Assembly: GCA_905331485.1 (NCBI GenBank)
Contig: CAJNYT010000219.1
Location: 1 to 49,272 of the forward strand
Length of the DNA: 49,272 nucleotides
Direction: 5' to 3'
Source: Rotaria socialis
Lineage: Eukaryota
The notes below the pieces were generated by a model. The model did no database searches and was not told the DNA's origin. It worked only from the letters and a program-made list of their open reading frames with translations. Shown here one piece after another: positions 4,280 to 49,272 of this stretch; the first letter of the stretch is position 1; every line of letters starts with the position of its first letter. The translations under genes were made by a program, and so were the position numbers.

Positions 4280-5362
4280 TCAAATTGATCTATCTATTAC
4301 TTGGTTGTTTCTTGGGCCTGTACCTATCAGCACCACAGGAATGCCTGTTTCACGTTCCATCATTTCTATATACTGCTTGGATTTTTCTGAAAGCTGATCA
4401 TATTGTGTGATACCAGCATCATCATAGTTGATATACTGTATGAAGTTAACTGCCAATTTGTTAACACCTGTCAGTTTCACTGCACGTTTGATACGATTCA
4501 CATCAATTTCAAATACCCGTCGTAATTTCTTAGTAACAGTTGTTAATTCTTTCGAAGAAAATGTCCCAATAGGGGCACCTGCTCGTTGTTCTACTTCTTC
4601 CCATGTGATTTCTTTTCCACCATCCCCTGAATATGCTTCACCTCCATCAGATTTAGCCATGTCATTAGAAATACGAATTGGATATGTACGAATGACACCA
4701 TAGATATCTCGAATATGTTTCGGAGGAATACCGTTATCTGAAAGTCCTTGCATTGGTGAACATTCTCTGCTGGTACAATGTGGATATTGAAAACCATGAT
4801 TAATACCTAATTCAAAACCTTGTGCTATTTCTAAAATACCTGTTTTTCCTTGTTCCAAATCATCGCAAGCCATTTCAGCTGTGTCTGCCAAAAAATTCGA
4901 CCACTCTCGAATGTCATGCATTAATTTATGATCTGGATGCCGCATTACTTTGAATGCACTAGCTGCACCAACACCTTTAAATGTACTTCCAGAGCGTATA
5001 TTCTCCTTTTCCCAATCACGATGTGTTTGTTGGATAACCGATGCTCTTGGATGAATAAAAAGACGGCCTTTTGCTTTTTCTTTGCCGCCAAGATACTGAT
5101 CAACTTCATTTTCAAGCTGTACCAAATCGATAACAGCGCCAGCACCTATATATAATTTCGTACTATCATTAATTAACGCTTGTGGCAACTGTTGGAAAAC
5201 ATATTTGGTGCCATCTTGTTTTATTACCGTATGACCTGCTTGTACACCATAGCTTTCAATAGCAAAATCATATTTGTGCTTTGTAGCTAAATATCCACCA
5301 ATAAGTCCTTTCCCGCACGATCCAAAGCAGAGATCAAGAATAATATCCAACGATCGTTCCAT
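4280..5362 (-). CDS. Short-form adenylosuccinate synthetase family protein (archaeal PurA / PurZ-type length), 360 aa, single exon
   Basis: Colinear with PurA throughout: 'QAGHTV' matches the NAGHT His motif, 'KGVGAASAF' the GTTGRGIGP region, 'LEIAQGFELGINHGFQYPHCTS' the EGAQG..DHGTYPYVTSS block, and the C-terminal 'EYDKLTEKGKAFI..ERVGVPV.IISTGP' of archaeal PurA aligns with 'QYDQLSEKSKQYIEMMERETGIPVVLIGTGP'. At 360 aa it has the archaeal/PurZ size, not the ~450 aa eukaryotic size. The N-terminal P-loop reads 'FGSCGKGL' where the canonical sequence is 'WGDEGKGK'. A true ATG (cat on the plus strand at 5360-5362) starts the ORF, and it has no intron. Confidence 0.8.
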   Translation of the reverse strand: MERSLDIILDLCFGSCGKGLIGGYLATKHKYDFAIESYGVQAGHTVIKQDGTKYVFQQLPQALINDSTKLYIGAGAVIDLVQLENEVDQYLGGKEKAKGRLFIHPRASVIQQTHRDWEKENIRSGSTFKGVGAASAFKVMRHPDHKLMHDIREWSNFLADTAEMACDDLEQGKTGILEIAQGFELGINHGFQYPHCTSRECSPMQGLSDNGIPPKHIRDIYGVIRTYPIRISNDMAKSDGGEAYSGDGGKEITWEEVEQRAGAPIGTFSSKELTTVTKKLRRVFEIDVNRIKRAVKLTGVNKLAVNFIQYINYDDAGITQYDQLSEKSKQYIEMMERETGIPVVLIGTGPRNNQVIDRSI

Positions 5363-7575: not shown

Positions 7576-9954
7576 TTAGACTTCTTTAAATAATATTCCG
7601 TAGGGTCGAACATTCTGTGAATTGTTACACGTCCATATATCTCGATTGTGCTTTGCGATCGAACTATTATTAATTCTCACTTGAAACATAACTTGCAATT
7701 GTCGGCCATTGTATGGTGTTGGCCTAGAGTAGTGTCTACTCCCGGAATATGATGGATTAGGCGATAAATATATGCCTCGACCATGAGCAGAACCATTAAC
7801 AATAGGTATCCCATTACTACCTCCAGCAATTAAACCATTACGTAGTATAGCTAAAGCATTGGCAGTTGCAGTACCATGATAAGCTACAGGCCATGCATCT
7901 TTGCCCTCCGCTAGCCATTCAGCATTTTCATATTTTCCAAGTACTTTAATAGCCTTTCTATACCATCCGCATGGCCTTGTATAAGGTTCTGGTCCACGTT
8001 GAAAAGTTCGACCGGCATCATTTCTTGTTGTAAAATCGTAGTCGTAAGTGCTATCAAGAAACTCTTCATCTAGCATAACACGATTTACAAAACGATTAGT
8101 CCGAGCAGTAGCACTTGAAAAATGTGGAATATAAGCTGCAATTGAACTCTGATTGTATTGATAAAATCGAACGTTTTGATCATCTTCCCATCGATTTATA
8201 TCATTATCAATATTCCAATAACTTAATCGAATACTTTCAGGACATGTATATTCAGATGGTTCATTTATTATTAATAGTGGACAATGCTCTTTTTTATCAC
8301 TAAATTGAATATGATCAGCTTTGAAATGAATAACTGATATAATTCGATTATAATTTTCTTCTAATGTTCCTTTGTCCGGTACATAATCTTCGTTTTTCCA
8401 TACAGTATTTGGTAAGGATTTACTTACTACGGACTTTGATTCTGATTCTTGTGCTATTTTATATTCCATTATTCGAGAAGAATAATACATAACAGCATTA
8501 CTTTCATACATATCAGCCTTTTCACACTGAGGACACTTTATTTTTACAGTAGAATTAGACTCTTGTTTAATGGTTGATGTTAGTTTATCATTTAATCTTT
8601 TACAGCACTGGTAACAAAATAAAGCTGAACAATTTGGATTAAGACATAATCTATGTTTTTCAGGTATTAAACGACAATATAAACATTCTAAAGCCGAAGT
8701 TCCTTCCATTTCAAATTTATCAATAATTTTTGATTTACGGTATTCTGATAATCGAACTTTCTTGTAACATGTTGGACAATGATGTTCATGATTTGTATTA
8801 TCACAACTGGATTCAATACAAATGCGACAAAATACTTGTGTACAATATGGGCATTCTAAATTATCATCATTAAGTTGTGATAAACAATTTAGACATTCAG
8901 GTTTATCTATGAAAATTAATGAAGATGTTGACGGTTTATTAATTAAAGTAGCTGAATTAAAATCCGTTTCAACTGCTTGTGCTAAATTAGTTTCATTGGA
9001 TGGCGTTTCTTTTTTTGAGGATATAATTGGATTTGACTGAGTAGGATTTATTTTCTTAATGTTAACTTTATCAATCTGATTATTCAATTCATTGATTTTT
9101 GTTGATATCTTCATCCAATTGCATGATGATTTTAAATTATCGATCAAGAAATCGTTGCTCCCAATAGAAATTGTTGTTGATTTTTTATTTCCAATTGTTT
9201 GTTTTGCTTGCTGGGCGGATTTAATCACATTGATGGTCTCAACTGGAAACATTAAAATAATTGTATTATTATCCAATCGAGCTTCACATTCATAATTTAT
9301 TATAGCAAATTTATCCTTATTGATGTCTGAAACTTTTTGACAGCGATCACTAGGTTGGACTGCATTAATCTGAGATGACCCTATATCTCCGTCGACGATA
9401 GTATCAGGCTGAATATTAAATTTTAATTGAACAATAGAACCAGGATTAATTCCTAAATCCAACATTGGAATATATGCATTTTTATTTAATGAGTAATATT
9501 TTCCATTAGCCATAATTCCTTGCGCATAGCGACCGTCGCAACATCTTACTTTACAAAATTGAGATAACAATAAACGATCATAGGGTAATGCTATTAATAA
9601 TGGATAATCATATATTTGGACTGATTTGAACATGGCCGTTTTTATTAATTTAATATGTGACACGTCAGCATTAGCTGAAATGAATATTTTTTCTAGTAAT
9701 TCAAAGTAATTTTCTACATTCATTGTAATTTTTTCTGATAAATGATTAGTTTGAATCATTTTACCAATATGTTGACATAATTTATTATATCTGAGTGGAT
9801 GAATTAATTGGGACGAAGGAATAATTCCCATTTTAATTTCAGTTATTGGCCAATATCTGAGATCTTGATCTTTACTAACAGCGCTAATAGGTTTATTATA
9901 ATCAGAATTTTCACTTTCTAATTGATTAGTGTTATCGGCAATTAAATGAAACAT
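7576..9954 (-). CDS. Large (792 aa) protein with several Cys-rich zinc-finger clusters (RING/IBR/B-box-like) and a C-terminal PARP-type (H-Y) ADP-ribosyltransferase-fold segment
   Basis: Cys clusters 'CLNCLSQLNDDNLECPYCTQVFCRICIESSCDNTNHEHHCPTC', 'CLYCRLIPEKHRLCLNPNCSALFCYQCC' and 'CPQCEK'. The C-terminal 'WPVAYHGTATANALAILRNGL...GSAHGRGIYLS' matches the PARP H-G-S/T ... IL..GF ... G-x-G-I-Y-F pattern. The ORF stops before the third catalytic position of the ART triad. True ATG start. Confidence 0.6.
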   Translation of the reverse strand: MFHLIADNTNQLESENSDYNKPISAVSKDQDLRYWPITEIKMGIIPSSQLIHPLRYNKLCQHIGKMIQTNHLSEKITMNVENYFELLEKIFISANADVSHIKLIKTAMFKSVQIYDYPLLIALPYDRLLLSQFCKVRCCDGRYAQGIMANGKYYSLNKNAYIPMLDLGINPGSIVQLKFNIQPDTIVDGDIGSSQINAVQPSDRCQKVSDINKDKFAIINYECEARLDNNTIILMFPVETINVIKSAQQAKQTIGNKKSTTISIGSNDFLIDNLKSSCNWMKISTKINELNNQIDKVNIKKINPTQSNPIISSKKETPSNETNLAQAVETDFNSATLINKPSTSSLIFIDKPECLNCLSQLNDDNLECPYCTQVFCRICIESSCDNTNHEHHCPTCYKKVRLSEYRKSKIIDKFEMEGTSALECLYCRLIPEKHRLCLNPNCSALFCYQCCKRLNDKLTSTIKQESNSTVKIKCPQCEKADMYESNAVMYYSSRIMEYKIAQESESKSVVSKSLPNTVWKNEDYVPDKGTLEENYNRIISVIHFKADHIQFSDKKEHCPLLIINEPSEYTCPESIRLSYWNIDNDINRWEDDQNVRFYQYNQSSIAAYIPHFSSATARTNRFVNRVMLDEEFLDSTYDYDFTTRNDAGRTFQRGPEPYTRPCGWYRKAIKVLGKYENAEWLAEGKDAWPVAYHGTATANALAILRNGLIAGGSNGIPIVNGSAHGRGIYLSPNPSYSGSRHYSRPTPYNGRQLQVMFQVRINNSSIAKHNRDIWTCNNSQNVRPYGILFKEV

Positions 9955-14545: not shown

Positions 14546-17500
14546 ATGAGAAGGGAAATGAAAATTTTTCACTTCTATAAAAACATAGTTGTAAAATATT
14601 TTAACAGTTAAAATAAATATTAAATTCGATTTTACTCATCAATTAATTGAAATTAATAGTTTAGAAAAATCTATTCTATTATGAGCAGAAATTATCAAAG
14701 GTTAAATGAATTTACATAGTACAGAACAAAAATATATGAATCGTTACTATTGCGATGTAATCGAACAAATGCTTCGAGTGCTAGAGGCATCATTATATAT
14801 TGAACTATGTAGAAGTTTATTAATAATAATCTATGAAACTCATTTAGTCTCGGAATATTATCTTCGTAGACATTGAAATTTTGTAAAAATACAATTTTAG
14901 TTTTAGTTTTCTATCATTTGAAATAGGAAATGACTTTTATTGTAATTAAGAAAGCAGTAAAATATCTTATCATCGAAGTCATCCATGATATCTAAGTGAA
15001 ATTATTAGAGATAATCAAGTTGATTTGTTCCGAATTTCATTTCAACACGTTTTGTATTCGTTTTCAATTGTATTTAATAACTGATAAACATGGTCAAGTA
15101 TTATTCAAATATGAATAATTCTGTTGTATTTAAACATAAAGATTTCGATTGAACATACGAAGAGAAACTTTCATTGCTAATGAAAAATATTGAATAATCA
15201 TTGAGACATTTGAACGACTTGTCTTCGCTTTTAAGAATGACGCCAAAATATAAACCTATTTTAATTAGTTCGACACACAGCTATTTAGTCACGCTCGATT
15301 AAATATATATAATTATTTACTTGTAAACAAATTATTTTTTAAAAAATAATTGTATATTTAAATGGCAAATATATTTACAAAAAAAAGTGTTGCTTGAAGT
15401 TCACTGTGATAATGGTTGTGGTTTACTTGTCAATGAAAATTGTCGAGAAAATCTTTTGTTTTTTTTCTTTATTGAATAATCTTTCTCTTCATTTTTGTTA
15501 ATTAGTCAATACATTTATTAAATTATATTCGAACTCATTATTATTTGTCATCATCAATAAAAAATGGATTTATGTTTAATAAATAGTGGAGAACCATTGC
15601 ATCTTTCATCATCTGATACAAAAATTATTTCATCAGGAAGATATTGTTTTCCGTCTCTTTTTCATTGAAGATCTGGATGCATGATATTCACCTCACACAT
15701 TCTACTCTTGTCTTAGTGCATGGGAAAAGACACATATATTTTTGTTGAACAGAAATCTTATTTTCAATCTTTTTTATTTGCTTAGTTTAACAGCTTTGGT
15801 GTGAATGAGAGATGAGCACAATATGCTCTCCCATCCACACGTTTGCCTTCGAGCTATTTTTAATTATTTGTCTCTAGAATAATGATAAAATTGTTAAACT
15901 TGAAAAAAAATCATTCATAAATATGAAATATCTAATAACTTATCAATATATATTCGAGTTTTATGATAGCACATCAATATGCGTATAAAATTCTCCATAG
16001 GTGCACACTTATCAATAAGGAAATGGATGATCTTAACCATTCTATCGTTTCTAGTACTATAATGGGCCACTTCTACAGTTCGATATATCAAAAATTAATA
16101 GATTACATCTACATTGAAAATATCTGGTAAATAGTTTCATCGGATTAATTCACCTATATATTTCTTTTTTTCTATAAGGAATCTTTTTGTTAACATAATT
16201 GATTATCAATGATCGGCTATCATTTAGACGATGTCCGTCAAGCATTGTATAAGTATACGTCTATTCTATTATCCGATAGACACATTATATCGACAATGAA
16301 TTCTTTATCAGGTATGAGTATGTGTAGCTCTTTGATAATATCATTTATTTGTATTATTCTTCTGTACAGAAGACTCCATGCAGCTGGTCGATTTACTTGA
16401 TGAGTTAATTTTAATTATCATGTACAAAGTGAAACCTAAAGTGTTATTGCTTTGTTCTACTATCACTATTGATAATAATCGTTTAGCAAAACTTGCACTT
16501 GATATGTATCATTCAATTGATTTAACTTTTAAGTATTTTCAATCACCATATCAATTTATTATTCCACGTTTTTACACACATTTTATGCCTTGTATCATTA
16601 ATAATATTCAACTTACACATTAGGTAAACTATGATTAACTATCGCTTTAGTTCATTTTCTACTTATAAAATAAGATAAATTCTTATTTTTTCAGAATTAA
16701 AAAAAAAGAACTCTACTTTAAATATAGAAGATTCAAGTGGCTTTTTAGGAACATTTAAGCAGAAAAGATGTGAGACTTTTTTAAGTATTCATTGCGATAA
16801 AAACTTTATGATCAAAATTGTGTTCCTTAAAAATCTTATATTTCGATCATAATACATTTAAAAAGAAGGAACCATTAGATGATATGCTAGTCTACTAGCC
16901 TCCTATCTCTGACCAGAATATGAGCTTTAAACATTATAATAACCTGGTTGATTCTTCTTCTCCTTAGATATTCCTAAAAAACAACTCGAATCTTCTGTAT
17001 TTCGAGTGGAAGTCGACAAAAACCTTTTCCAAAAAAATGGTTGAATACCGATGATTTTACCCTTCTGATAAAATCTATACTTAGGAAAACATTGATATTT
17101 GTATATATTATTAGGCAATAACCTTTACTGTGTTTCGCGGTGTTTTACTCTCTTCTCAAATATACCTCAATTTTCTGTACGTACTGGATAAGAGCAATAC
17201 TGCTCGCACTTGATCTAAATTCTTTTGTTCACTATCTGTGTCTTCTATTGTATCTTTCGAATTGGATGATGATTGTATTTTAAAAAATATATTTTAAAAT
17301 GGCGATGATTTAATTTTTCCTGAATCAATCCATCTGACTCTTATTCGAATAATATTATTTGAATTCGAACGTTGCATTTTTTTACTTAATCAATTGGGCT
17401 CATAATTATGTTCATTCGTTGTAAGTGTGTGGTGTTTGTTTCTGCATCAGATGTTGGTATTTTTTCTAAAATTAAATCAGTAAGCAATATTTAGTAATTG

Positions 17501-17899
17501 CAAATCTCATTTAATTAATTCATAAAGATTTCATGTCCTAATTTGAAACGATTGGCAATGAAAATTTGTTTCTTCCTGTTTTACAATGTTGATCAAATTT
17601 CGAATATTTAATATTATTATTAGCTATTGAATTCAAAAGAAATACACCCAAACGTTTTATTGATGGATTTGATTTGGATAAACACATTATTTTATGCATG
17701 CCTCATTTATGTCAATTTCATATTCGTTCAATATTACCAAATGCTGCTCATGTAGAAATCGAGAATGAACTTGAGCGACAAGAAAAAATAGAAACGACAA
17801 CAAATAATCTTGAATTTACTCATTTAACTACTCTGATTTTATTTGATATTCATTTGGATTATGCTGAACAATTACTTTGTCGAAGCCATTTTCCTTCTC

Positions 17900-18720
17900 T
17901 TATTGTGCAGCGGTAGGCTTTTCATTTAAGGAAATGTGCTCCAACCGCATTAGACCATCCATACGTATAGGCTTCTGTTTTTGTTTACTTTCAATACAAA
18001 CGCCATTAGCTACAGTACGAAATAGCTGCGTAATATCTTTATTTGGCTTTGCTATGTGTTTCAATAGATGTTTGGCGAATAATCCATTTCTATCAGTAGT
18101 ATCACCATCAGAGGCAATTTGATTTGGGCTACATGCAAAGACGACGTAGCTGCCATCCGGTACTTCCATTGCATGTAAACTAATACCTTCGAGCTTCGCT
18201 AAAACAACGATACGTGATACATCTTATACGGCACAATTTTGACTAGTTTTTGCTACCAACCGTTTCTTTGCCTTTTGTTTTTTGGATAGTGTACTCGACA
18301 ACAATCTAGTATAAATACCGTCACAAAGGATGGATTTTTTTGTCTTAATTGATGAAGAGTGCGTTCGGCACAAGTACAATAATCCTCAACATCTTCATCA
18401 GATTTAATTAAATCATCATCTACGTGAGCCAAATATGTTCTGCCATTAACGTGATAGCCATGGCCAGAAAAGTAGAACATAACCAAATCGCCGTCAACGA
18501 TTGTCTCAGCAAAAGCGGATATTGTAGAGGCCATTTGTGACTTTGTAAGATCACGTGCCGTTTTTACCTGAAATTTAATATTTCGTAGCACGTTACTAAG
18601 ATCATTAGCATCATTGATACAATGACGAAGTCTATCTTCAGATTGAATATAATTCTGGTTTCCGATAACTAATGCTATTTTACGGCGAGGCCTTGAGGCA
18701 GTAGAATTCAGAGTAGCCAT
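17900..18720 (-). CDS. Caspase-family (peptidase C14-like) protein: p20-like part (18253..18720) plus p10-like part (17900..18169), split by a short intron or frameshift
   Basis: 'KIALVIGNQNY...CINDANDL...FQV', 'FYFSGHGY' (catalytic His-Gly) and 'ILDCCR' (catalytic Cys, D-x-C-R type) sit in the first ORF. 'GSYVVFACSPNQIASDG...NGLFAKHL' in the second ORF is the typical small-subunit motif. The open frame upstream of the second ORF extends to '...RIVVLAKLEGISLHAMEV'. A candidate 62-nt intron (weak GTTGGT donor, TTGTTTTAG acceptor) would join the two parts. Confidence 0.6.
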
Positions 18721-18889
18721 GAGAATTATTTTTTTCTAAAAGAAAATAACTCAGTTAAATTACACGGCTGATAAGTATCGGACACTCAGGATACTTTAAT
18801 AAATAGACTGCAGATAGATTTTTGATGTATTTTAACTTTGTATCTGTGTGATACACTTACATATTGTATTGTTCTCTTAGAACGGTTCT

Positions 18890-19480
18890 CAATAGCATAT
18901 GAGCGCATGCGGTAAGTCTTTTTCCTGAAAAACTCTTCCACTCATTCTCTGCAAATGGCACTTGTACTTTTCCGCGGCACAATCAAACACATCATTTAGT
19001 ACGAGCAATGTCGTAATCAGTTTTCCTTCCCGTTTCGCCATATTTCAGTCCATGAGCATCGCGAAAAATAAAGTACGCTGAAGGATGGACTAGTAGACGT
19101 TTTGATTGTAAACGATCAGTATTATTCATGTATAGAAAACGATTTTAGAGAATATTAATTATGCTGAATATTTACTTATAAACAATCAAAAGCACAACGA
19201 AACCTTGTCAAACCGTTTTCTATACATGAATAATACTGATCGTTTACAATCAAAACGTATAATAGTCCATCCTTCAGCGTACTCTATTTTTCGCGATGCT
19301 CATCGACTGAAATATGGTGAAACTGGAAGGAAAACGGATTCCGACATTGAAACATGTAAATGGAATAATATGTTTTTGAACGCTGCTCGTGCTAAATGAT
19401 GCGTTTGATTGTGCCACTGAAAACTACAAGCGTCAATTGCAGAGAATGAGTCGAAGAGTTTTTCAGAAAAAAGGCTTACC
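18890..19480. repeat. ~590-bp foldback palindrome (arms ~255 bp, loop 19142-19212)
   Basis: 19041-19141 is the reverse complement of 19213-19312 with near-perfect identity. The outer arms still match ('agagaatgagtggaagagtttttcaggaaaaag' at 18925 versus 19441). The ORFs 19205..19399 and 19300..19482 are mirror-image artefacts. Confidence 0.8.
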
Positions 19481-20126
19481 ATATACGCTCATATGCTGCT
19501 GAGAAGCATGCAAAATACAAGGAGGCCTATTATTTTTGTCTGTCCATTATAAGAGTGATTTATAAGCAGCTACGTAAAGAACATGATATATTTTTTCACC
19601 TTAGGCAAATATTAGTTTTGGCTCATGACGCGAACTTTCGAAATGTTTTATTAATATTTCACAATACGTATTTTTGATGACGTCATTACTCTGAATAACA
19701 GATGAGATATGTTTTAATCACAGTCAAGTTATTAGAATTTTCAACGTTGTTTTAACAAAAAATACGTCTAAGTGATATAGGTAAAGTTAGCACCAAATTC
19801 GGTTATTTTTTGTCCGGATTAGCTCAAGAACGTGCGTTCGATGTAAAATTAAATTCTACGTCGAATTGCATTATTTTCAATAGTGGTCATCGAGCAAGAA
19901 AAGGGGCTCAGGATGAAATACTAGAGTTCGGGTGCACGATACCATAATCTTGATAGGCATTATTGAAGTTGGTCAAAAGATTTCAATCGCCACATAGGGT
20001 TGGACCGTTTGTTAGCTATAATATGTATAGAATGAAAGAAAGATATAAGGAATGAAAGAGGGATATATAGAGAGTGAAAGAGACAAGCAGTGTCACTGAT
20101 GTTATGTGACAGAACGAAGAAAAATA

Positions 20127-25832: not shown

Positions 25833-27707
25833 ATGACTTCATTAACGAAAAATCTTGAAGGTCTGACTATTGTATGGCTTGATGTTGATCGTATTCATCA
25901 AAACACCGATGATTATTTTGATACGAAAAATCGTCTACGACAATGCAATAATTATATAGAAATATATCATGATCCAAATGAGTGTATTCATGGTATAATA
26001 GCGAATGGATACGTTTTTCTAATCGTTTCTGGTTCAATCTGCGAAACATTTATTCCGCTGATTTTTGAAATCAAACAGATCGTATTTATTTACGTTCTAT
26101 ATTCGGATAATCAATTGACGGACACCTGTGAACTAAAAACTATTTCAAAACTTCATGGAATATTCTCAAGTAAAAACCAACTTATTGAAAAACTGAAACA
26201 AGACGTCAAATCATATTTGAAGAGTTTGCCACTAACATGTATCGTCAATGAAAAGTCAATTCGTGCTTTAAACAAAGAATATTCTACGTTTATGTGGACT
26301 CAATTGCTTATGGACGTTTTAATTCAAATACCTCAAACAGATCGTGCAAAAATGATGATGTTAGAAGATTGCCGATTGCATTATGCTGATAATAAAGCTC
26401 AATTAGATGATATTAACGAGTTTCAAGAAAAATATGAACCAGACTTTGCAGTTTGGTGGTATACACGTGAGAGTTTCGCATATAAACAATTAAACCAAGC
26501 ACTACGTACACAAGATATTGACATTATTTTTAAATATCAATTTTTTATAAGAGATCTTTATGTACTATTGAAAGAATTATATGAAGAATCTATGCCATCC
26601 TTAGAAGAAATATCGATTGTCTACCGTGGCCAACATATCAATTGTGATGAATTGGAAAAAATAAAAAATAATGTGAACGGTCTTATTTCAATGAATTCAT
26701 TTTTATCAACAACTCGAAACAAGAATCGAGCTTTAATATCCGCCGGTGATGGTTCAAATAGGCCCTCGCTTGAATCCATCTTATTTGAAATTACGATTAA
26801 TAAAAATGTTGCTGCTAAAACTAAACCATTCGCTGACATTACAAAGATGAGTCAATTTGGCAAGGCAGAAGAAGAAATACTATTATCGATTGGAAGTATA
26901 TTCAAGATTCAGTCAGTTGAACAGTTAGCTGAAAATGCTCATGTTTGGGACGTTAAGCTAATATTAAATGAATCAGTGGTGATTAATGAAATAGACATGT
27001 TATTCAATTATTTCAAAATGAATTCAACTACAAGTATATCGAATGTCGGTACATTAGGTTTACTATTAGGAGAGATGGGAGAATATGAAAAAGCGGAAAA
27101 ATATTATCAAATGATGCTTGATGAATTATCAACAGATCATTGCGGAGTTCCAATAATATTAAATAATATGGGAGTATTATACAATGATATGGGTAATGAT
27201 GAAAAAGCATTAGAATATTATAAGAAATCATACGAAAGTTATAAAATGCAAAACGTATCAGAAAATGATCTTCTCTTAGCGAATTTATATCATAATATGG
27301 GTTCATTGTATTATGAAAATGAGTATAATAAAACAGCATTGAAATATTTTAAAAAAGCTTTTAAAATTTGTAATAATAATTCTACGCTACCCAGTCTTTT
27401 ATTATCTGCAACATTATATACAGACGTGAGTGGAATATATCAAGATAATGAAGATTCTGTTAATGCATTGGATCAGTTGCAACACACATTTGAAATCCAA
27501 AAAAGAATTCTACCATCAACTCATTTCAGAATCGCTGCAACATACAATAACATAGGAAGTGTTTATCTTTGTAAAGGAGATTATGCAAAAGCATTAGAAA
27601 ACTTTGAAATAGCCTTGAATATTGGATTAAAATCTTTGCCAGCCGATCATGAACATATTCAAACATATCGTGAAAATATAAAACATGCTAAAGAAAGAAT
27701 AAAGTAA
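25833..27707 (+). CDS. ART-TPR protein: R-S-E mono-ADP-ribosyltransferase domain followed by about 4 TPR repeats, with an uncharacterised N-terminal domain; 624 aa
   Basis: 'ISIVYRGQ' (R), 'SFLSTTRN' (S-T-T) and 'GKAEEEILLSIGS' (E-x-E). The C-terminal TPR-like repeats include 'LGEMGEYEKAEKYYQMML', 'MGVLYNDMGNDEKALEYYKKS', 'MGSLYYENEYNKTALKYFKKAF' and 'IGSVYLCKGDYAKALENFEIAL'. True ATG with an in-frame TAG three codons upstream. Confidence 0.85.
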   Translation: MTSLTKNLEGLTIVWLDVDRIHQNTDDYFDTKNRLRQCNNYIEIYHDPNECIHGIIANGYVFLIVSGSICETFIPLIFEIKQIVFIYVLYSDNQLTDTCELKTISKLHGIFSSKNQLIEKLKQDVKSYLKSLPLTCIVNEKSIRALNKEYSTFMWTQLLMDVLIQIPQTDRAKMMMLEDCRLHYADNKAQLDDINEFQEKYEPDFAVWWYTRESFAYKQLNQALRTQDIDIIFKYQFFIRDLYVLLKELYEESMPSLEEISIVYRGQHINCDELEKIKNNVNGLISMNSFLSTTRNKNRALISAGDGSNRPSLESILFEITINKNVAAKTKPFADITKMSQFGKAEEEILLSIGSIFKIQSVEQLAENAHVWDVKLILNESVVINEIDMLFNYFKMNSTTSISNVGTLGLLLGEMGEYEKAEKYYQMMLDELSTDHCGVPIILNNMGVLYNDMGNDEKALEYYKKSYESYKMQNVSENDLLLANLYHNMGSLYYENEYNKTALKYFKKAFKICNNNSTLPSLLLSATLYTDVSGIYQDNEDSVNALDQLQHTFEIQKRILPSTHFRIAATYNNIGSVYLCKGDYAKALENFEIALNIGLKSLPADHEHIQTYRENIKHAKERIK

Positions 27708-28478: not shown

Positions 28479-30061
28479 TTATTCTGCTAGTTCTGCTTCT
28501 ATAAGACGAACACAATGACTAAGTCCATCTTCATTTTTAATTAATTCGCTAATCTTTTTAGCACTGGTTTTATAAATGTTATAATTGTCAATCATAAGAT
28601 CACGAATTGCATTAGTTAAATTCTTCACATTGGTGTGACGTATGGAAATAGATCTTGGTCCTAATCTATTGATAAATATTCGATCACCGTTAAATGGTTG
28701 ATCGGCTCCAAAAGATAATACTAATGTAGGCAATCCATACCAAAGACTTGCATGTGTAGTACCGGCACCACCATGATGAATTGTTGCTGACATATAAATA
28801 AATAACCAAGAATGTGGAATGGCATGTGTCAAATAAAATATATTATCAGCTGTGGATAACGTACTGGCATCTGCGCTTTTAAATCCAACTAATGACATAA
28901 CTGCTTTACAATTATTTCTATCAAGAGCCAATAAAATTTTGCGTATAAATTCCATTTGTTCATCTGCTCCAAACATGGTACCCATCATTGATCCAAGACC
29001 AACATAGATAATCTTCTCGTTTTTCCATTTGGTCAAGAAGTCAAGAATAGGAGTTGGCGGTTGAAAATTCTCATTTTCTTTTTCAAGTATTGGACCGACC
29101 ATATGATCATTTTCGTGCCAATCGGATGGACATGGTATTAAATATTTGGAATAGATCGTTGCAGATACCAATGGCTTACGAAACAGGGATTGAGTCATAC
29201 GTTCATAATTTAATTTCATTGGTGGTAAATCATTAGTGGCACGAAGTTCATTGAGTTTATCATTATAGATGCTTGACATAGCATAGTCGACTATTTTCCA
29301 TTTCAATAAATTGGTCCACTTGAACAAACTACCACTTTTCCCACCTAAACCAGGCGGCGAAAAATGAACTGTTCGTATCACTGGGAATGTGTAGATTCCA
29401 ATTGCTTTAATATTAGGAAATTTCTCAATACAACTTAATCCAGGGAAAATAGATGCAACTGTTAGAACAATTAAATCAGCGTCTTTTACACCAGACAGAA
29501 TTCCATTAAACCATTCTTCAATCGCTGGTTGAAATATACGTTTTACTAATCCCATTTTTAAAATACTTGGATTCCGTCGGAGCTCGATTCCTTCTGGGCT
29601 TGTCGATAAAAAATGTTCTAGGTCACCACCGATTTCAACTACATCGAAACCTGAATAAACAAATAGAAGGTGATATCATGGAAATATTAATGAAAGAACT
29701 CTTCAATATTAGATTTAGATTTATATTGTGCGATGATACAATGATAATATGGGAAAGTATCAAGCGATTGTTGGATTTAAGATTGATAGTACTTACCAGC
29801 AGCTTTTACTATGTCTTGATAACGTCGATGTACACCAAGCCATACGATATGTCCACGTTTTTTAAGTTCTTCGGCAAGTATCATAAAAGGTTTCACATCT
29901 CCTAGAGTGCCAGTCGCCGGAATAAAAATCTTTTTAACTCTAGTATTCTTGCTACTGTCATTAATTTCTTTGGCAATCGAGCTTTCTTCCTGGCTTTCCA
30001 AGTCCATGAGATGTGAATCTTCACTTATATTTCTAAAATTGAAATCAATAATGTGTTTCAT
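28479..30061 (-). CDS. GT1-family UDP-glycosyltransferase (sterol 3-beta-glucosyltransferase / macrolide-GT type), two exons (30061..29797 and 29650..28479), ~480 aa
   Basis: Exon 1 'KKIFIPATGTLGDVKPFMILAEELKKRGHIVWLGVHRRYQDIVKAAG' is the GT-B N-terminal signature. Exon 2 carries 'HHGGAGTT' and 'GLPTLVLSFGADQPFNGDRI' (C-terminal UDP-sugar motif). A GTAAGT donor at 29796 and a TTATTCAG acceptor at 29651 give a 146-nt intron. That joins the frames exactly: ...VKAAG|FDVVEIGGDLEHF..., matching the UGT51-type 'GLEFFPIGGDP'. There is no GRAM/PH N-terminus. The track start at 30079 is TTG; the first ATG is at 30061. Confidence 0.8.
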
Positions 30062-48315: not shown

Positions 48316-49272
48316 TTACAACCATTCTGGAAAGCGTGCTTGGGTCTCTAAATATAGTTTATCGAGTCGTTCAATTTCTGTCAGTTGTGACTTGCTGGGT
48401 TTAATTAACAACACCTTGTAATCAAAATATCGCAAAATAACCAAATCAGTTAAGCGTTTTACCCGCGATAAGGGTACATAGACTGCAGCAATATCATCGG
48501 TTTCATTTGGCAGTTTTAAATCAATCACAACTTTATTCAATGTTTGACCTTGACTCTTGTGTGTTGTAATGCAATAAGCTGGTACAAGTGGTAATGCGCG
48601 CCGTTTAATTGATAACAGTGTTTTTCTATTTGATTTTGGTTTCTTATCTTTTGGAAGCATATCGCCTATATCGACTCGAAATGTTTGTTCCATTACCGGT
48701 ATTGGAATCAGTTTTGGCTGAAGTTGTTCTAAATTGCATTCGATCGTTGATTTGCTAATTTCCACCAAGGCGTACAGAGGTCGATGGACATATCGTGCAT
48801 TCTTGGAAAATTCTTCTGAAATAATATCAGTTGACACGGAATCTTCCTGGTAGACAAGCTGCCGAAAGATTCCGTTCACACCGTTGATAAGACCCAATTC
48901 AATTGCAATATTTTGCGTTAAAATTACAGGCATTCCAGGAACAAGAGGTAATAGACCTGGTAGATGCTCTGTTTTACTATCAGATAATTCTAATCATTTT
49001 TTAATAAGTGCTCGATCTTCAATTGGTTTGCCTTTGCAGGTGTCTTGGGCAATGCATACTATAGGTGTCTGTCCCACTTGTTGTGCTTTGTGACTAAGTG
49101 CCTTGTGATTTAATTGTGTTCGTATTTCGTTACGAAATACAAGAATCGGAGCCTAAAATGATGAAGATAGTGAATTGTCTAAATCTAGAAAAACAAATTT
49201 ACTTTATTCCATGGTGAATCACTTAACAAGGGTACGGAAGATTGCCCCACTATTCGTGTTAACAATAATTCG
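48316..49272 (-). mobile_element. Helitron / Pif1-like helicase C-terminal remnant (degenerate, runs off the window edge)
   Basis: 'ALPLVPAYCITTHKSQGQTLNKVVIDL...YVPLSRVKRLTDLVIL' is the Pif1/Helitron Rep-Hel C-terminal signature. Upstream helicase-like sequence ('LVFRNEIRTQLNHKALSHKAQQVGQTPIV...') is interrupted by an in-frame stop near 48990. Confidence 0.55.

Follow-up and report, generated by a model that had tools for sequence, protein, structure and literature searches.

A probable two-exon gene for a stand-alone paracaspase-like protease in the bdelloid rotifer Rotaria socialis

MALT1, the type 1 paracaspase of MEROPS family C14B, is Arg-specific; classical caspases (C14A) have the QACxG motif, a basic S1 pocket (Arg179 and Arg341), and Asp at P1. 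Metacaspases, which carry DxCH and a Ca-binding p10 domain, and orthocaspases both have basic P1 specificity, and the DxCR motif, characteristic of caspases and paracaspases, has been proposed for the type II paracaspases and is common in prokaryotic homologs (PMC5756287). The type 2 paracaspases of Hulpiau et al. (2016) consist of the paracaspase domain only and carry DxCR (PMC5978004, PMC5756287), bilaterians normally retain a single type 1 paracaspase (PMC5978004; bioRxiv 10.1101/046789), and bacterial paracaspases with signal peptides have been described (PMC3417536). In the portions of Nowell et al. (2024, Nat Commun, PMC11258130) available to us, 101 Peptidase_C14 proteins of Adineta vaga and 69 of Adineta ricciae are presented as a “bdelloid-specific expansion,” many of them flagged as candidates for horizontal gene transfer (HGT); the family is treated there in one methods paragraph and a supplementary tree, and these portions do not describe its paracaspase affinity, its S1 pocket, the intron, or the locus examined here. 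That locus is a C14 gene on the minus strand (18720..17900) of a 49,272-nucleotide stretch of Rotaria socialis DNA (contig CAJNYT010000219.1), the whole of which is referred to below as the window. The gene is a new member of the already reported bdelloid C14 expansion and encodes a known kind of protease; with good, if not complete, confidence it can be read as an intact two-exon bdelloid gene for a 252-residue cytosolic single-domain clan CD, family C14 protease of the paracaspase-like (DxCR) type.

The preliminary description of this DNA, made from the letters alone, had proposed a compact stand-alone caspase-fold gene at 17900-18720 whose two halves would be joined either by a 62-nt intron with a weak donor or by a +1 frameshift. 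The upstream half is an open reading frame (ORF) of 155 codons (18720..18253) that contains the FSGHGY and ILDCCR motifs and closes at a TAG at 18255-18253; the downstream ORF (18169..17900) holds the C-terminal part of the C14 domain. After enumeration of all GT/GC..AG pairs that restore one open frame, the 62-nt intron proved to be the only in-frame join whose junction (..RQRN/AKLEG..) agrees with the homologs, and the proposed intron is thereby upheld, with GT..AG borders (GTTGGT...TTTTAG; exon context acg/GTTGGTAG...GTTGTTTTAG/cga) in phase 1. Introns of 38, 74, 77, 98, and 101 nt would also leave the frame open and were rejected, as their junction peptides mismatch the homologs and none has the conserved TTTAG acceptor. 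Three-frame translation of the gap found stops in every frame between 18255 and 18224 (frame 2 at 18255-18253, frame 1 closed until the TAA at ~18226-18224, and frame 0 also stopped), so that no frameshift can join the halves and this alternative must be dropped. Beyond the intron, exon 2 can be read in the required phase for 99 codons without a stop. The start ATG lies at 18720 and the TAA stop at 17902-17900; because there is an in-frame stop 5 codons upstream of the ATG and the homologs share the same start Met, the protein comprises a single C14 domain with short tails. The resulting gene model is as follows:

18261..18720, minus strand: exon 1, coding, from Met1 to the first base of codon 154 (ORF and translation, PF00656, start Met common to homologs); encodes β1 to β4 of the caspase fold, the catalytic His87, and the D139-C140-C141-R142 motif
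18199..18260, minus strand: intron of 62 nt, phase 1, GTTGGTAG...GTTGTTTTAG, interrupting the basic loop past the catalytic Cys
17900..18198, minus strand: exon 2, coding, including the TAA stop, from the last two bases of codon 154 to Gln252 (translation, PF00656, tblastn); encodes β5 and β6, the C-terminal helices, and the predicted S1-pocket residue Asp184
17838..17843, minus strand: AATAAA, candidate polyadenylation signal 56 nt past the stop (pattern search, consensus match only)

A tblastn search of the window with the spliced protein matched only the exon 1 and exon 2 blocks and revealed no further C14 copy in the window, where the gene is thus single-copy; an exact look-up of the exon 1 ORF returned no record.

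The spliced product matches PF00656 (Peptidase_C14) over residues 13 to 231 of 252 with E=8.5e-39 and 134 bits (cutoff 21.4), and each half does so separately, the first with E=2.3e-28 (profile positions 1 to 129) and the second with E=3.3e-07 (positions 162 to 222). No other Pfam domain reaches its threshold in the 252-residue protein, in agreement with the earlier claim that death-fold, Ig, and other accessory domains are absent. An AlphaFold2 model built from a 48-homolog alignment has a mean predicted local distance difference test score of 89.8 and a predicted template modeling (TM) score of 0.89, and is weak only in the N-terminal tail and in the loop 143-166 (10-residue block means of 73 and 54). 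In this model, His87 follows the strand 79-86 and Cys141 the strand 133-140, which is the placement of the catalytic residues in C14 peptidases, so that the protein can confidently be modeled as a member of clan CD, family C14, with the caspase/hemoglobinase fold.

Within this family, the MALT1 paracaspase is the closest characterized and structurally solved relative by a wide margin. A search of the PDB with the single protein sequence returned ten MALT1 entries (E=2.5e-17 to 8.5e-16, residues 12 to 228), followed by matches over partial stretches to an ancestral caspase (1e-3), metacaspase-1 (3e-3), and caspase-1 (~1e-2); metacaspase entries reached only E=3e-3 to 5e-3. With the 48-homolog profile as the query, MALT1 was matched over the whole domain at 2e-35 versus 1e-10 for caspase-1 and GSU0716, and metacaspases were absent from the top 60 matches. 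Foldseek comparison of the model with the PDB placed MALT1 structures at all of ranks 1 to 34 (E=9e-20 to 1e-11, TM-score up to 0.77), with GSU0716, caspase-9, Sf-caspase-1, and CED-3 next at ~1e-10. Searches for known defense systems gave only a match to the generic “caspase” model of PADLOC (E=1e-10) and a score of 62 bits, versus a cutoff of 140, against the NCBIfam model caspase_w_EACC1; neither result backs assignment to a specific defense system.

Alignment with MALT1, whose numbering offset was checked against the PDB chain, and with 48 homologs allows the predicted catalytic and substrate-binding residues to be located:

18610..18612, minus strand: codon of Asp37 (IND37AND), predicted S1-pocket acid, aligned with MALT1 Asp365; present in 47/48 homologs
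18460..18462, minus strand: codon of the catalytic His87 (FSGH87GY), aligned with MALT1 His415; 48/48 homologs
18295..18306, minus strand: D139-C140-C141-R142, aligned with MALT1 D462-M-C464-R
18161..18294, minus strand: flexible basic loop, residues 143 to 166 (VHYPKNKRQRNAKLEGISLHAMEV), split by the intron and equivalent to the inter-subunit linker; low AlphaFold confidence
18107..18109, minus strand: codon of Asp184 (IASD184G), predicted S1-pocket acid, aligned with MALT1 Glu500 in the profile alignment

The His/Cys dyad is intact. The predicted nucleophile is Cys141 (codon 18300-18298), which is aligned with MALT1 Cys464 and conserved in 46 of the 48 sequences; Asp139 is found in all 48 and Arg142 in 47. 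Position 140 is the variable “x” of the motif (Cys in 26 sequences and Ala in 20), occupied by Ala in essentially all bacterial homologs and by Cys across the bdelloid clade, in which some paralogs carry DCCQ, DCCK, or DCCG. As aligned, D-C-C-R is therefore the DxCR form with the second Cys as the putative nucleophile, and the motif is not novel: it also occurs in the t1B and t2 paracaspases of Nematostella and the t1B paracaspases of Hydra and Acropora, so that the D-C-C-R context does not deserve the emphasis initially placed on it. One protein from a 35.8-kb ENA contig (P0211) has the bdelloid-type N terminus MMASGS...RKRALLIGN, lacks a signal peptide, and falls inside the bdelloid clade, yet has LLDACR; it may retain the ancestral Ala ahead of the catalytic Cys.

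Asp139, aligned with MALT1 Asp462, is a further predicted S1-pocket acid, and position 184 is Asp in 43 and Glu in 3 of the 48 homologs. The corresponding MALT1 residues, Asp365, Asp462, and Glu500, make up the S1 pocket of that enzyme (structures of Yu et al. 2011 and Wiesmann et al. 2012). Because Asp37, Asp139, and Asp184 match this acidic pocket, the rotifer protein is predicted to cleave after Arg or Lys at P1 and not, as caspases do, after Asp. The loop that follows the catalytic Cys includes VHYPKNKRQRNAKLEG, the only disordered internal segment of the protein, located at the site where caspases and metacaspases are processed; the homologs are basic there too. By analogy, this basic loop (KNKRQRNAK) is a plausible candidate for a site of autoprocessing, trans-processing, or regulation.

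The best database match of the protein is a Rotaria magnacalcarata protein with 85% identity, followed by a long series of Rotaria and Adineta proteins. Four homologous loci were compared with the window gene:

R. magnacalcarata: gene and 5' flank 93% identical in nucleotides; 62-nt intron with the same GTTGGTAG donor and 6/62 mismatches
Rotaria sordida: ~71% nucleotide identity; 54-nt intron, GTCAAA...TTTAG
Adineta vaga: 55% amino acid identity; 50-nt intron, GTAAGG...TTTAG
Metagenomic contig: 60% amino acid identity; no intron at the conserved site

The annotated models of R. sordida and A. vaga require an intron past the same Asn codon in phase 1, and the intron position (codon and phase) is identical in R. 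magnacalcarata, R. sordida, A. vaga, and the window, i.e., at four loci in two genera, so that it should predate the split between Adineta and Rotaria. Since the donor differs freely among the species, the GTTGGT donor of the window, which had been taken as weak or non-consensus, is no sign of decay. The intronless homolog (ENA ERZ3572111 NODE_12511, positions 1076-1825) lies on a contig with bdelloid-like GC content (35%) and adjoins an esterase gene; it indicates either intron loss or a lineage that never acquired the intron.

The ratios of nonsynonymous to synonymous substitution rates (dN/dS, Nei-Gojobori) between the window coding sequence and the four homologs are 0.30, 0.25, 0.25, and 0.21, the value of 0.30 being that for R. 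magnacalcarata; in this last comparison, 23 synonymous and 27 nonsynonymous changes were counted and neutrality was rejected (binomial p=1e-4). The coding sequence has 38% GC and 28.5% GC at third codon positions, similar to the 19 to 24% at third positions of the other long ORFs in the window. Given the conserved intron and the dN/dS range of 0.21 to 0.30, the gene is, as judged from its sequence, intact and selectively maintained and not a pseudogene, contrary to the recent pseudogenization that had been considered for it.

An exhaustive search of 1.84 billion representative proteins with HMMER returned 32,515 matches at E≤1e-3. Two groups make up the top 150. Proteins of one start with MA..(R/K)K.AL(V/I)IGN, lack a signal peptide, and carry DCCR, and the named ones all come from the bdelloids Rotaria, Adineta, and Didymodactylos; those of the other have a signal peptide and ILDACR, and the ones with a source name belong to bacteria (Microcystis, Methylococcales, Moduliflexus, and Cloacimonetes). 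Among the top matches that carry a source name there is no animal other than bdelloids, nor are the best homologs ordinary caspases with CARD or DED partners, a possibility that the preliminary description had raised against its own proposal. A scan of GTDB (one genome per species, with an 8-sequence alignment as the query) found collinear homologs with 30 to 37% identity over residues 13 to 236 in Proteobacteria, Bacteroidota, Acidobacteriota, Nitrospirota, Desulfobacterota, Cyanobacteria, Verrucomicrobiota, and other phyla. Compared with these bacterial homologs, the rotifer protein has neither the signal peptide nor the domains at the C terminus (DUF4189, Lcl_C, TPR), and its loop past the catalytic Cys is four residues longer.

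For comparison with animal paracaspases, invertebrate and type 2 sequences were taken from the supplement of PMC5978004, as a search with the human MALT1 domain gave almost only vertebrate proteins; type 2 is represented by two sequences, from Nematostella and Trichoplax. Per-domain phmmer bit scores were as follows:

Window protein against bacterial proteins: median 114, maximum 136
Window protein against vertebrate paracaspases (n=30): median 63, maximum 84
Window protein against 13 invertebrate paracaspases, whether of type 1 or type 2: median 64, maximum 88
Human MALT1 against bacterial proteins: median 58, maximum 78
Human MALT1 against bdelloid proteins: median 46, maximum 63

The top animal matches of the window protein are two Nematostella proteins (87 and 88 bits, the latter being the type 2 protein); the other invertebrate scores include those of Lingula (79 bits), the Trichoplax type 2 protein (67), Biomphalaria (54), and Capitella (50). 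In neighbor-joining trees (200 bootstraps), the bdelloid sequences form a clade of their own (88 to 92% bootstrap), apart from the bacterial and animal homologs. The window subfamily groups with A. vaga and Adineta steineri proteins (99.5%), and the animal paracaspases (12 vertebrate and 13 invertebrate) form a 98% clade with the bdelloid sequences outside it.

The protein has the DxCR motif and, on alignment, the acidic S1 pocket of a paracaspase-type protease domain, and it is closer to paracaspases than to caspases or metacaspases. With MALT1 and the other type 1 paracaspases it shares the His/Cys dyad, DxCR, and three acidic S1 residues, and probably also an Arg-directed specificity; it differs from MALT1 in sequence (~26% identity) and lacks the death domain, Ig1/Ig2, and the Ig3 that follows the protease domain. 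Animal paracaspases as a whole (50 to 88 bits) score well under the bacterial proteins, and the absence of death and Ig domains, together with the position outside the 98% animal clade, sets the protein apart from type 1. The descriptors of type 2 paracaspases, a single domain and DxCR (here DCCR), do apply to it; like NvPCASPt2 and TaPCASPt2, it lacks the death domain and the N-terminal Ig domains, and the Nematostella type 2 protein has VLDCCR. However, the type 2 proteins possess a long Ig3-like C-terminal extension and score far under the bacterial proteins, and common descent with them can be judged from only the two available sequences (88 and 67 bits) and a bdelloid-animal join with 60% bootstrap.

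The bacterial “caspase family proteins” with ILDACR, which have been called orthocaspases (Klemencic & Funk) or bacterial paracaspases (Aravind & Koonin), share with the rotifer protein the motifs ALVIGNxxY, NDAxD, FY[FY][AS]GHG, NYL.P, ILDxCR, A.DG..RNG.[FY][TA]KHLLK, and KQ.P; they differ in having signal peptides, usually DUF4189, Lcl_C, or TPR domains at the C terminus or tandem proteases, Ala before the catalytic Cys, and no intron. The early suggestion that the gene resembles orthocaspases more than caspases, paracaspases, or metacaspases thus stands insofar as its nearest non-rotifer relatives are bacterial (30 to 37% identity), but the closest characterized protein is MALT1. Being eukaryotic, as its conserved spliceosomal intron and its rotifer flanks show, the gene falls outside the definition of an orthocaspase, although by analogy its product should work like an orthocaspase or a paracaspase. 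Metacaspases and classical caspases have the clan CD fold and the His/Cys dyad in common with it, and metacaspases also the acidic S1 pocket and basic P1 specificity. The Cys is followed by Arg and not His, and matches to metacaspases in the PDB are weak and partial; likewise, the motif reads DCCRV, the S1-equivalent residues are Asp, and matches to caspases are weak and partial. Within bdelloids, the protein clusters with the C14 proteins of the expansion reported by Nowell et al. (bootstrap 88 to 92%), and homologs with the same MA...RKxALVIGN start and DCCR are found in Rotaria, Adineta, and Didymodactylos.

Several observations weigh against regarding the locus as an intact, bacterially derived gene for an Arg/Lys-directed protease. 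Splicing at the GTTGGT donor would follow from conservation only, and the specificity, activation mode, and biological role are proposed purely on homology; type 2 paracaspases have shown no MALT1-like activity in published tests (bioRxiv 10.1101/046789). No bacterial protein exceeds ~37 to 40% identity, and the neighbor-joining tree that includes the invertebrate sequences joins the bdelloid and metazoan paracaspase clades against the sampled bacteria with 60% bootstrap. The closest ortholog, that of R. magnacalcarata, has a 2-bp deletion in exon 2 (CBCPNL020002107.1, ~4690-4700; columns 739-740 of alignment A1), so that, unless this is an assembly error, the subfamily is able to decay. The deposited R. 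magnacalcarata model (P0001) bridges the deletion by an artificial intron, drops GDITERNGLFAKHLLKH, and extends into a Ser/Thr-rich tail; that ortholog has either become a pseudogene recently or suffers from an assembly error, and the intact copy is the one in the window. If the window gene were itself a recent pseudogene, the stop past exon 1 would be real and the message unspliced, leaving only a truncated 155-residue p20-like fragment or nothing. The damaged ortholog and the departure of GTTGGT from the canonical GTAAGT speak for such decay, which nevertheless appears very improbable: the R. magnacalcarata donor is identical and donors elsewhere are equally non-canonical (e.g., GTCAAA), annotated models splice at the same codon and phase, exon 2 is open in the correct phase, selection is evident even against the closest copy, and the catalytic and S1 residues are complete in both exons. 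Bacterial contamination or an assembly chimera, which the bacterial nature of the nearest non-rotifer homologs might suggest, is effectively refuted by the spliceosomal-type GT..AG intron conserved across bdelloid genera, the 93% nucleotide identity, flanks included, to the R. magnacalcarata contig, a GC content resembling that of the surrounding AT-rich DNA, the absence of the signal peptide found in bacterial homologs, identity of at most 37% to any bacterium, and neighbors that include PARP-like, TPR-repeat (ART-TPR-like, where ART is ADP-ribosyltransferase), and F-box-like ORFs.

Descent from an ancient animal paracaspase (type 2 or “t1B-like”) that stayed bacterial-like, was lost elsewhere in Bilateria, and expanded in bdelloids would account for the 60% node, for D-C-C-R in the cnidarian paracaspases, and for Nematostella proteins being the best animal matches; the gene would then be equally functional, and its history alone would differ. 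Such vertical inheritance is nonetheless rather unlikely. The bacterial scores far exceed those of any animal paracaspase; the spiralian paracaspases, expected to be closest, score lowest (Lingula, Biomphalaria, and Capitella); human MALT1 prefers bacterial over bdelloid proteins, and the sampled invertebrate paracaspases score about equally with both. Non-bdelloid animals are missing from the named top matches, the Ig3-like extension that even cnidarian and placozoan type 2 proteins have is lacking, and the intron count is one or zero. At the 60% node itself, the two longest branches meet in a tree whose bacterial sample is biased toward top matches, so that long-branch attraction is likely. 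A bacterial origin with horizontal transfer into the bdelloid stem is accordingly favored, somewhat better than evenly, as the history of the family; it fits the published screens that flag many bdelloid C14 genes as HGT candidates (PMC11258130) and also the single type 1 paracaspase usual in bilaterians.

The surroundings of the gene contain several other elements. Upstream of the ATG, at a distance of about 160 bp, there is a palindrome of ~640 bp centered near 19178, formed by a large inverted repeat (18877-19145 and 19210-19514) whose arms measure 140 nt (94%) and 131 nt (85%); each arm contains ORFs that mirror those of the other. Its appearance is that of a foldback or MITE-type (miniature inverted-repeat transposable element) element or of a promoter-proximal palindrome. 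Leucine-rich, F-box-like ORF fragments on the plus strand (16378-16623 and 17674-17916) converge on the 3' end of the C14 gene. The last one has its stop at 17916, in an overlap of 17 nt with the stop of the C14 gene (17900), whose AATAAA (17843-17838) lies inside that ORF; with many stops between its fragments, the F-box-like gene looks degenerate and is either multi-intronic or decayed. Seven kilobases from the C14 gene, an uninterrupted plus-strand ORF (25833-27707) encodes 624 residues with C-terminal TPR repeats and matches the ART-TPR portion of an A. vaga C14 fusion protein (P0129) with 30% identity (E=3e-44). The link to the C14 gene that this homology provides, of the “Rosetta stone” type, is weak, and ART-TPR proteins may simply be very abundant in bdelloids. 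Four further long, uninterrupted ORFs were noted in the window:

4280-5362, minus strand: adenylosuccinate synthetase-like ORF, intronless (PF00709, E=8e-42)
7576-9954, minus strand: 792-residue protein with a PARP catalytic domain
28479-29555, minus strand: ORF with an EryCIII-like glycosyltransferase C-terminal domain
48316-48933, minus strand: PIF1/Helitron-like helicase fragment

Several of these four are possibly further horizontal acquisitions or transposon remnants.

In paralogs, the C14 domain occurs in several combinations with other domains. An R. socialis paralog of 1,688 residues (P0254, of the P0126 cluster), 40% identical to the window protein, has the C14-NACHT-HEAT repeat architecture; the A. 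vaga protein P0129 (1,105 residues) is C14-ART-TPR; P0251 (576 residues) has the C14 domain downstream of the ART domain; and P0083 (633 residues) is a tandem C14-C14 protein. These fusion paralogs carry the DCC[RQK] protease domain of the same bdelloid clade, and their architectures are typical of conflict and immune signaling proteins, resembling those of NLRs or of conflict systems. By homology, the stand-alone protein can be expected to function as a cytosolic endopeptidase in which Cys141 would attack the scissile bond, with His87 as the general base, and the acidic S1 pocket of Asp37, Asp139, and Asp184 would select Arg or Lys at P1; the disordered basic loop past the catalytic Cys may serve as the site of autoprocessing or regulation. 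Most likely, the family passed from bacteria to the bdelloid ancestor, after which the signal peptide and C-terminal domains would have been lost, one intron gained, and the copies multiplied, and in some paralogs the domain would have become the N-terminal module of NACHT-HEAT and ART-TPR proteins. Within a conflict- or stress-signaling repertoire, the stand-alone copy probably acts as a free protease with an effector or regulatory role. A much more speculative proposal, to which only a small probability can be given, is that stand-alone DCCR proteases are free effectors or amplifiers of an immune or cell-death network that is peculiar to bdelloids and derived from bacteria, with C14-NACHT-HEAT and C14-ART-TPR proteins as receptors, activation by induced proximity or by trans-cleavage of the basic loop, and possible redox control through Cys140-Cys141 in desiccation. 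If that proposal were true, the family would constitute an innate-immunity module that an animal assembled from bacterial paracaspases acquired horizontally, parallel to caspase/NLR inflammasomes. According to Nowell et al. (PMC11258130), the C14 genes that respond to a fungal pathogen are few and for the most part downregulated.

Taken alone, the locus is of little weight, being another copy of a family whose massive expansion and probable horizontal acquisition have been reported before. The present analysis adds the correct gene model, including a conserved intron by which the family is older than the split between Adineta and Rotaria, the recognition, from aligned residues, of a paracaspase-like family with an apparently full MALT1-type acidic S1 pocket, and the use of the same domain by paralogs as the N-terminal module of NACHT-HEAT and ART-TPR proteins. 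The pocket, the intron, and the fusions are useful annotation and not surprises; given the predicted Arg/Lys specificity, caspase (DEVD-type) assays would miss the activity of these proteins. Should the family be shown to act in bdelloid immunity or in cell death linked to desiccation, it would clearly exemplify the re-use of bacterial conflict-system proteases by an animal.

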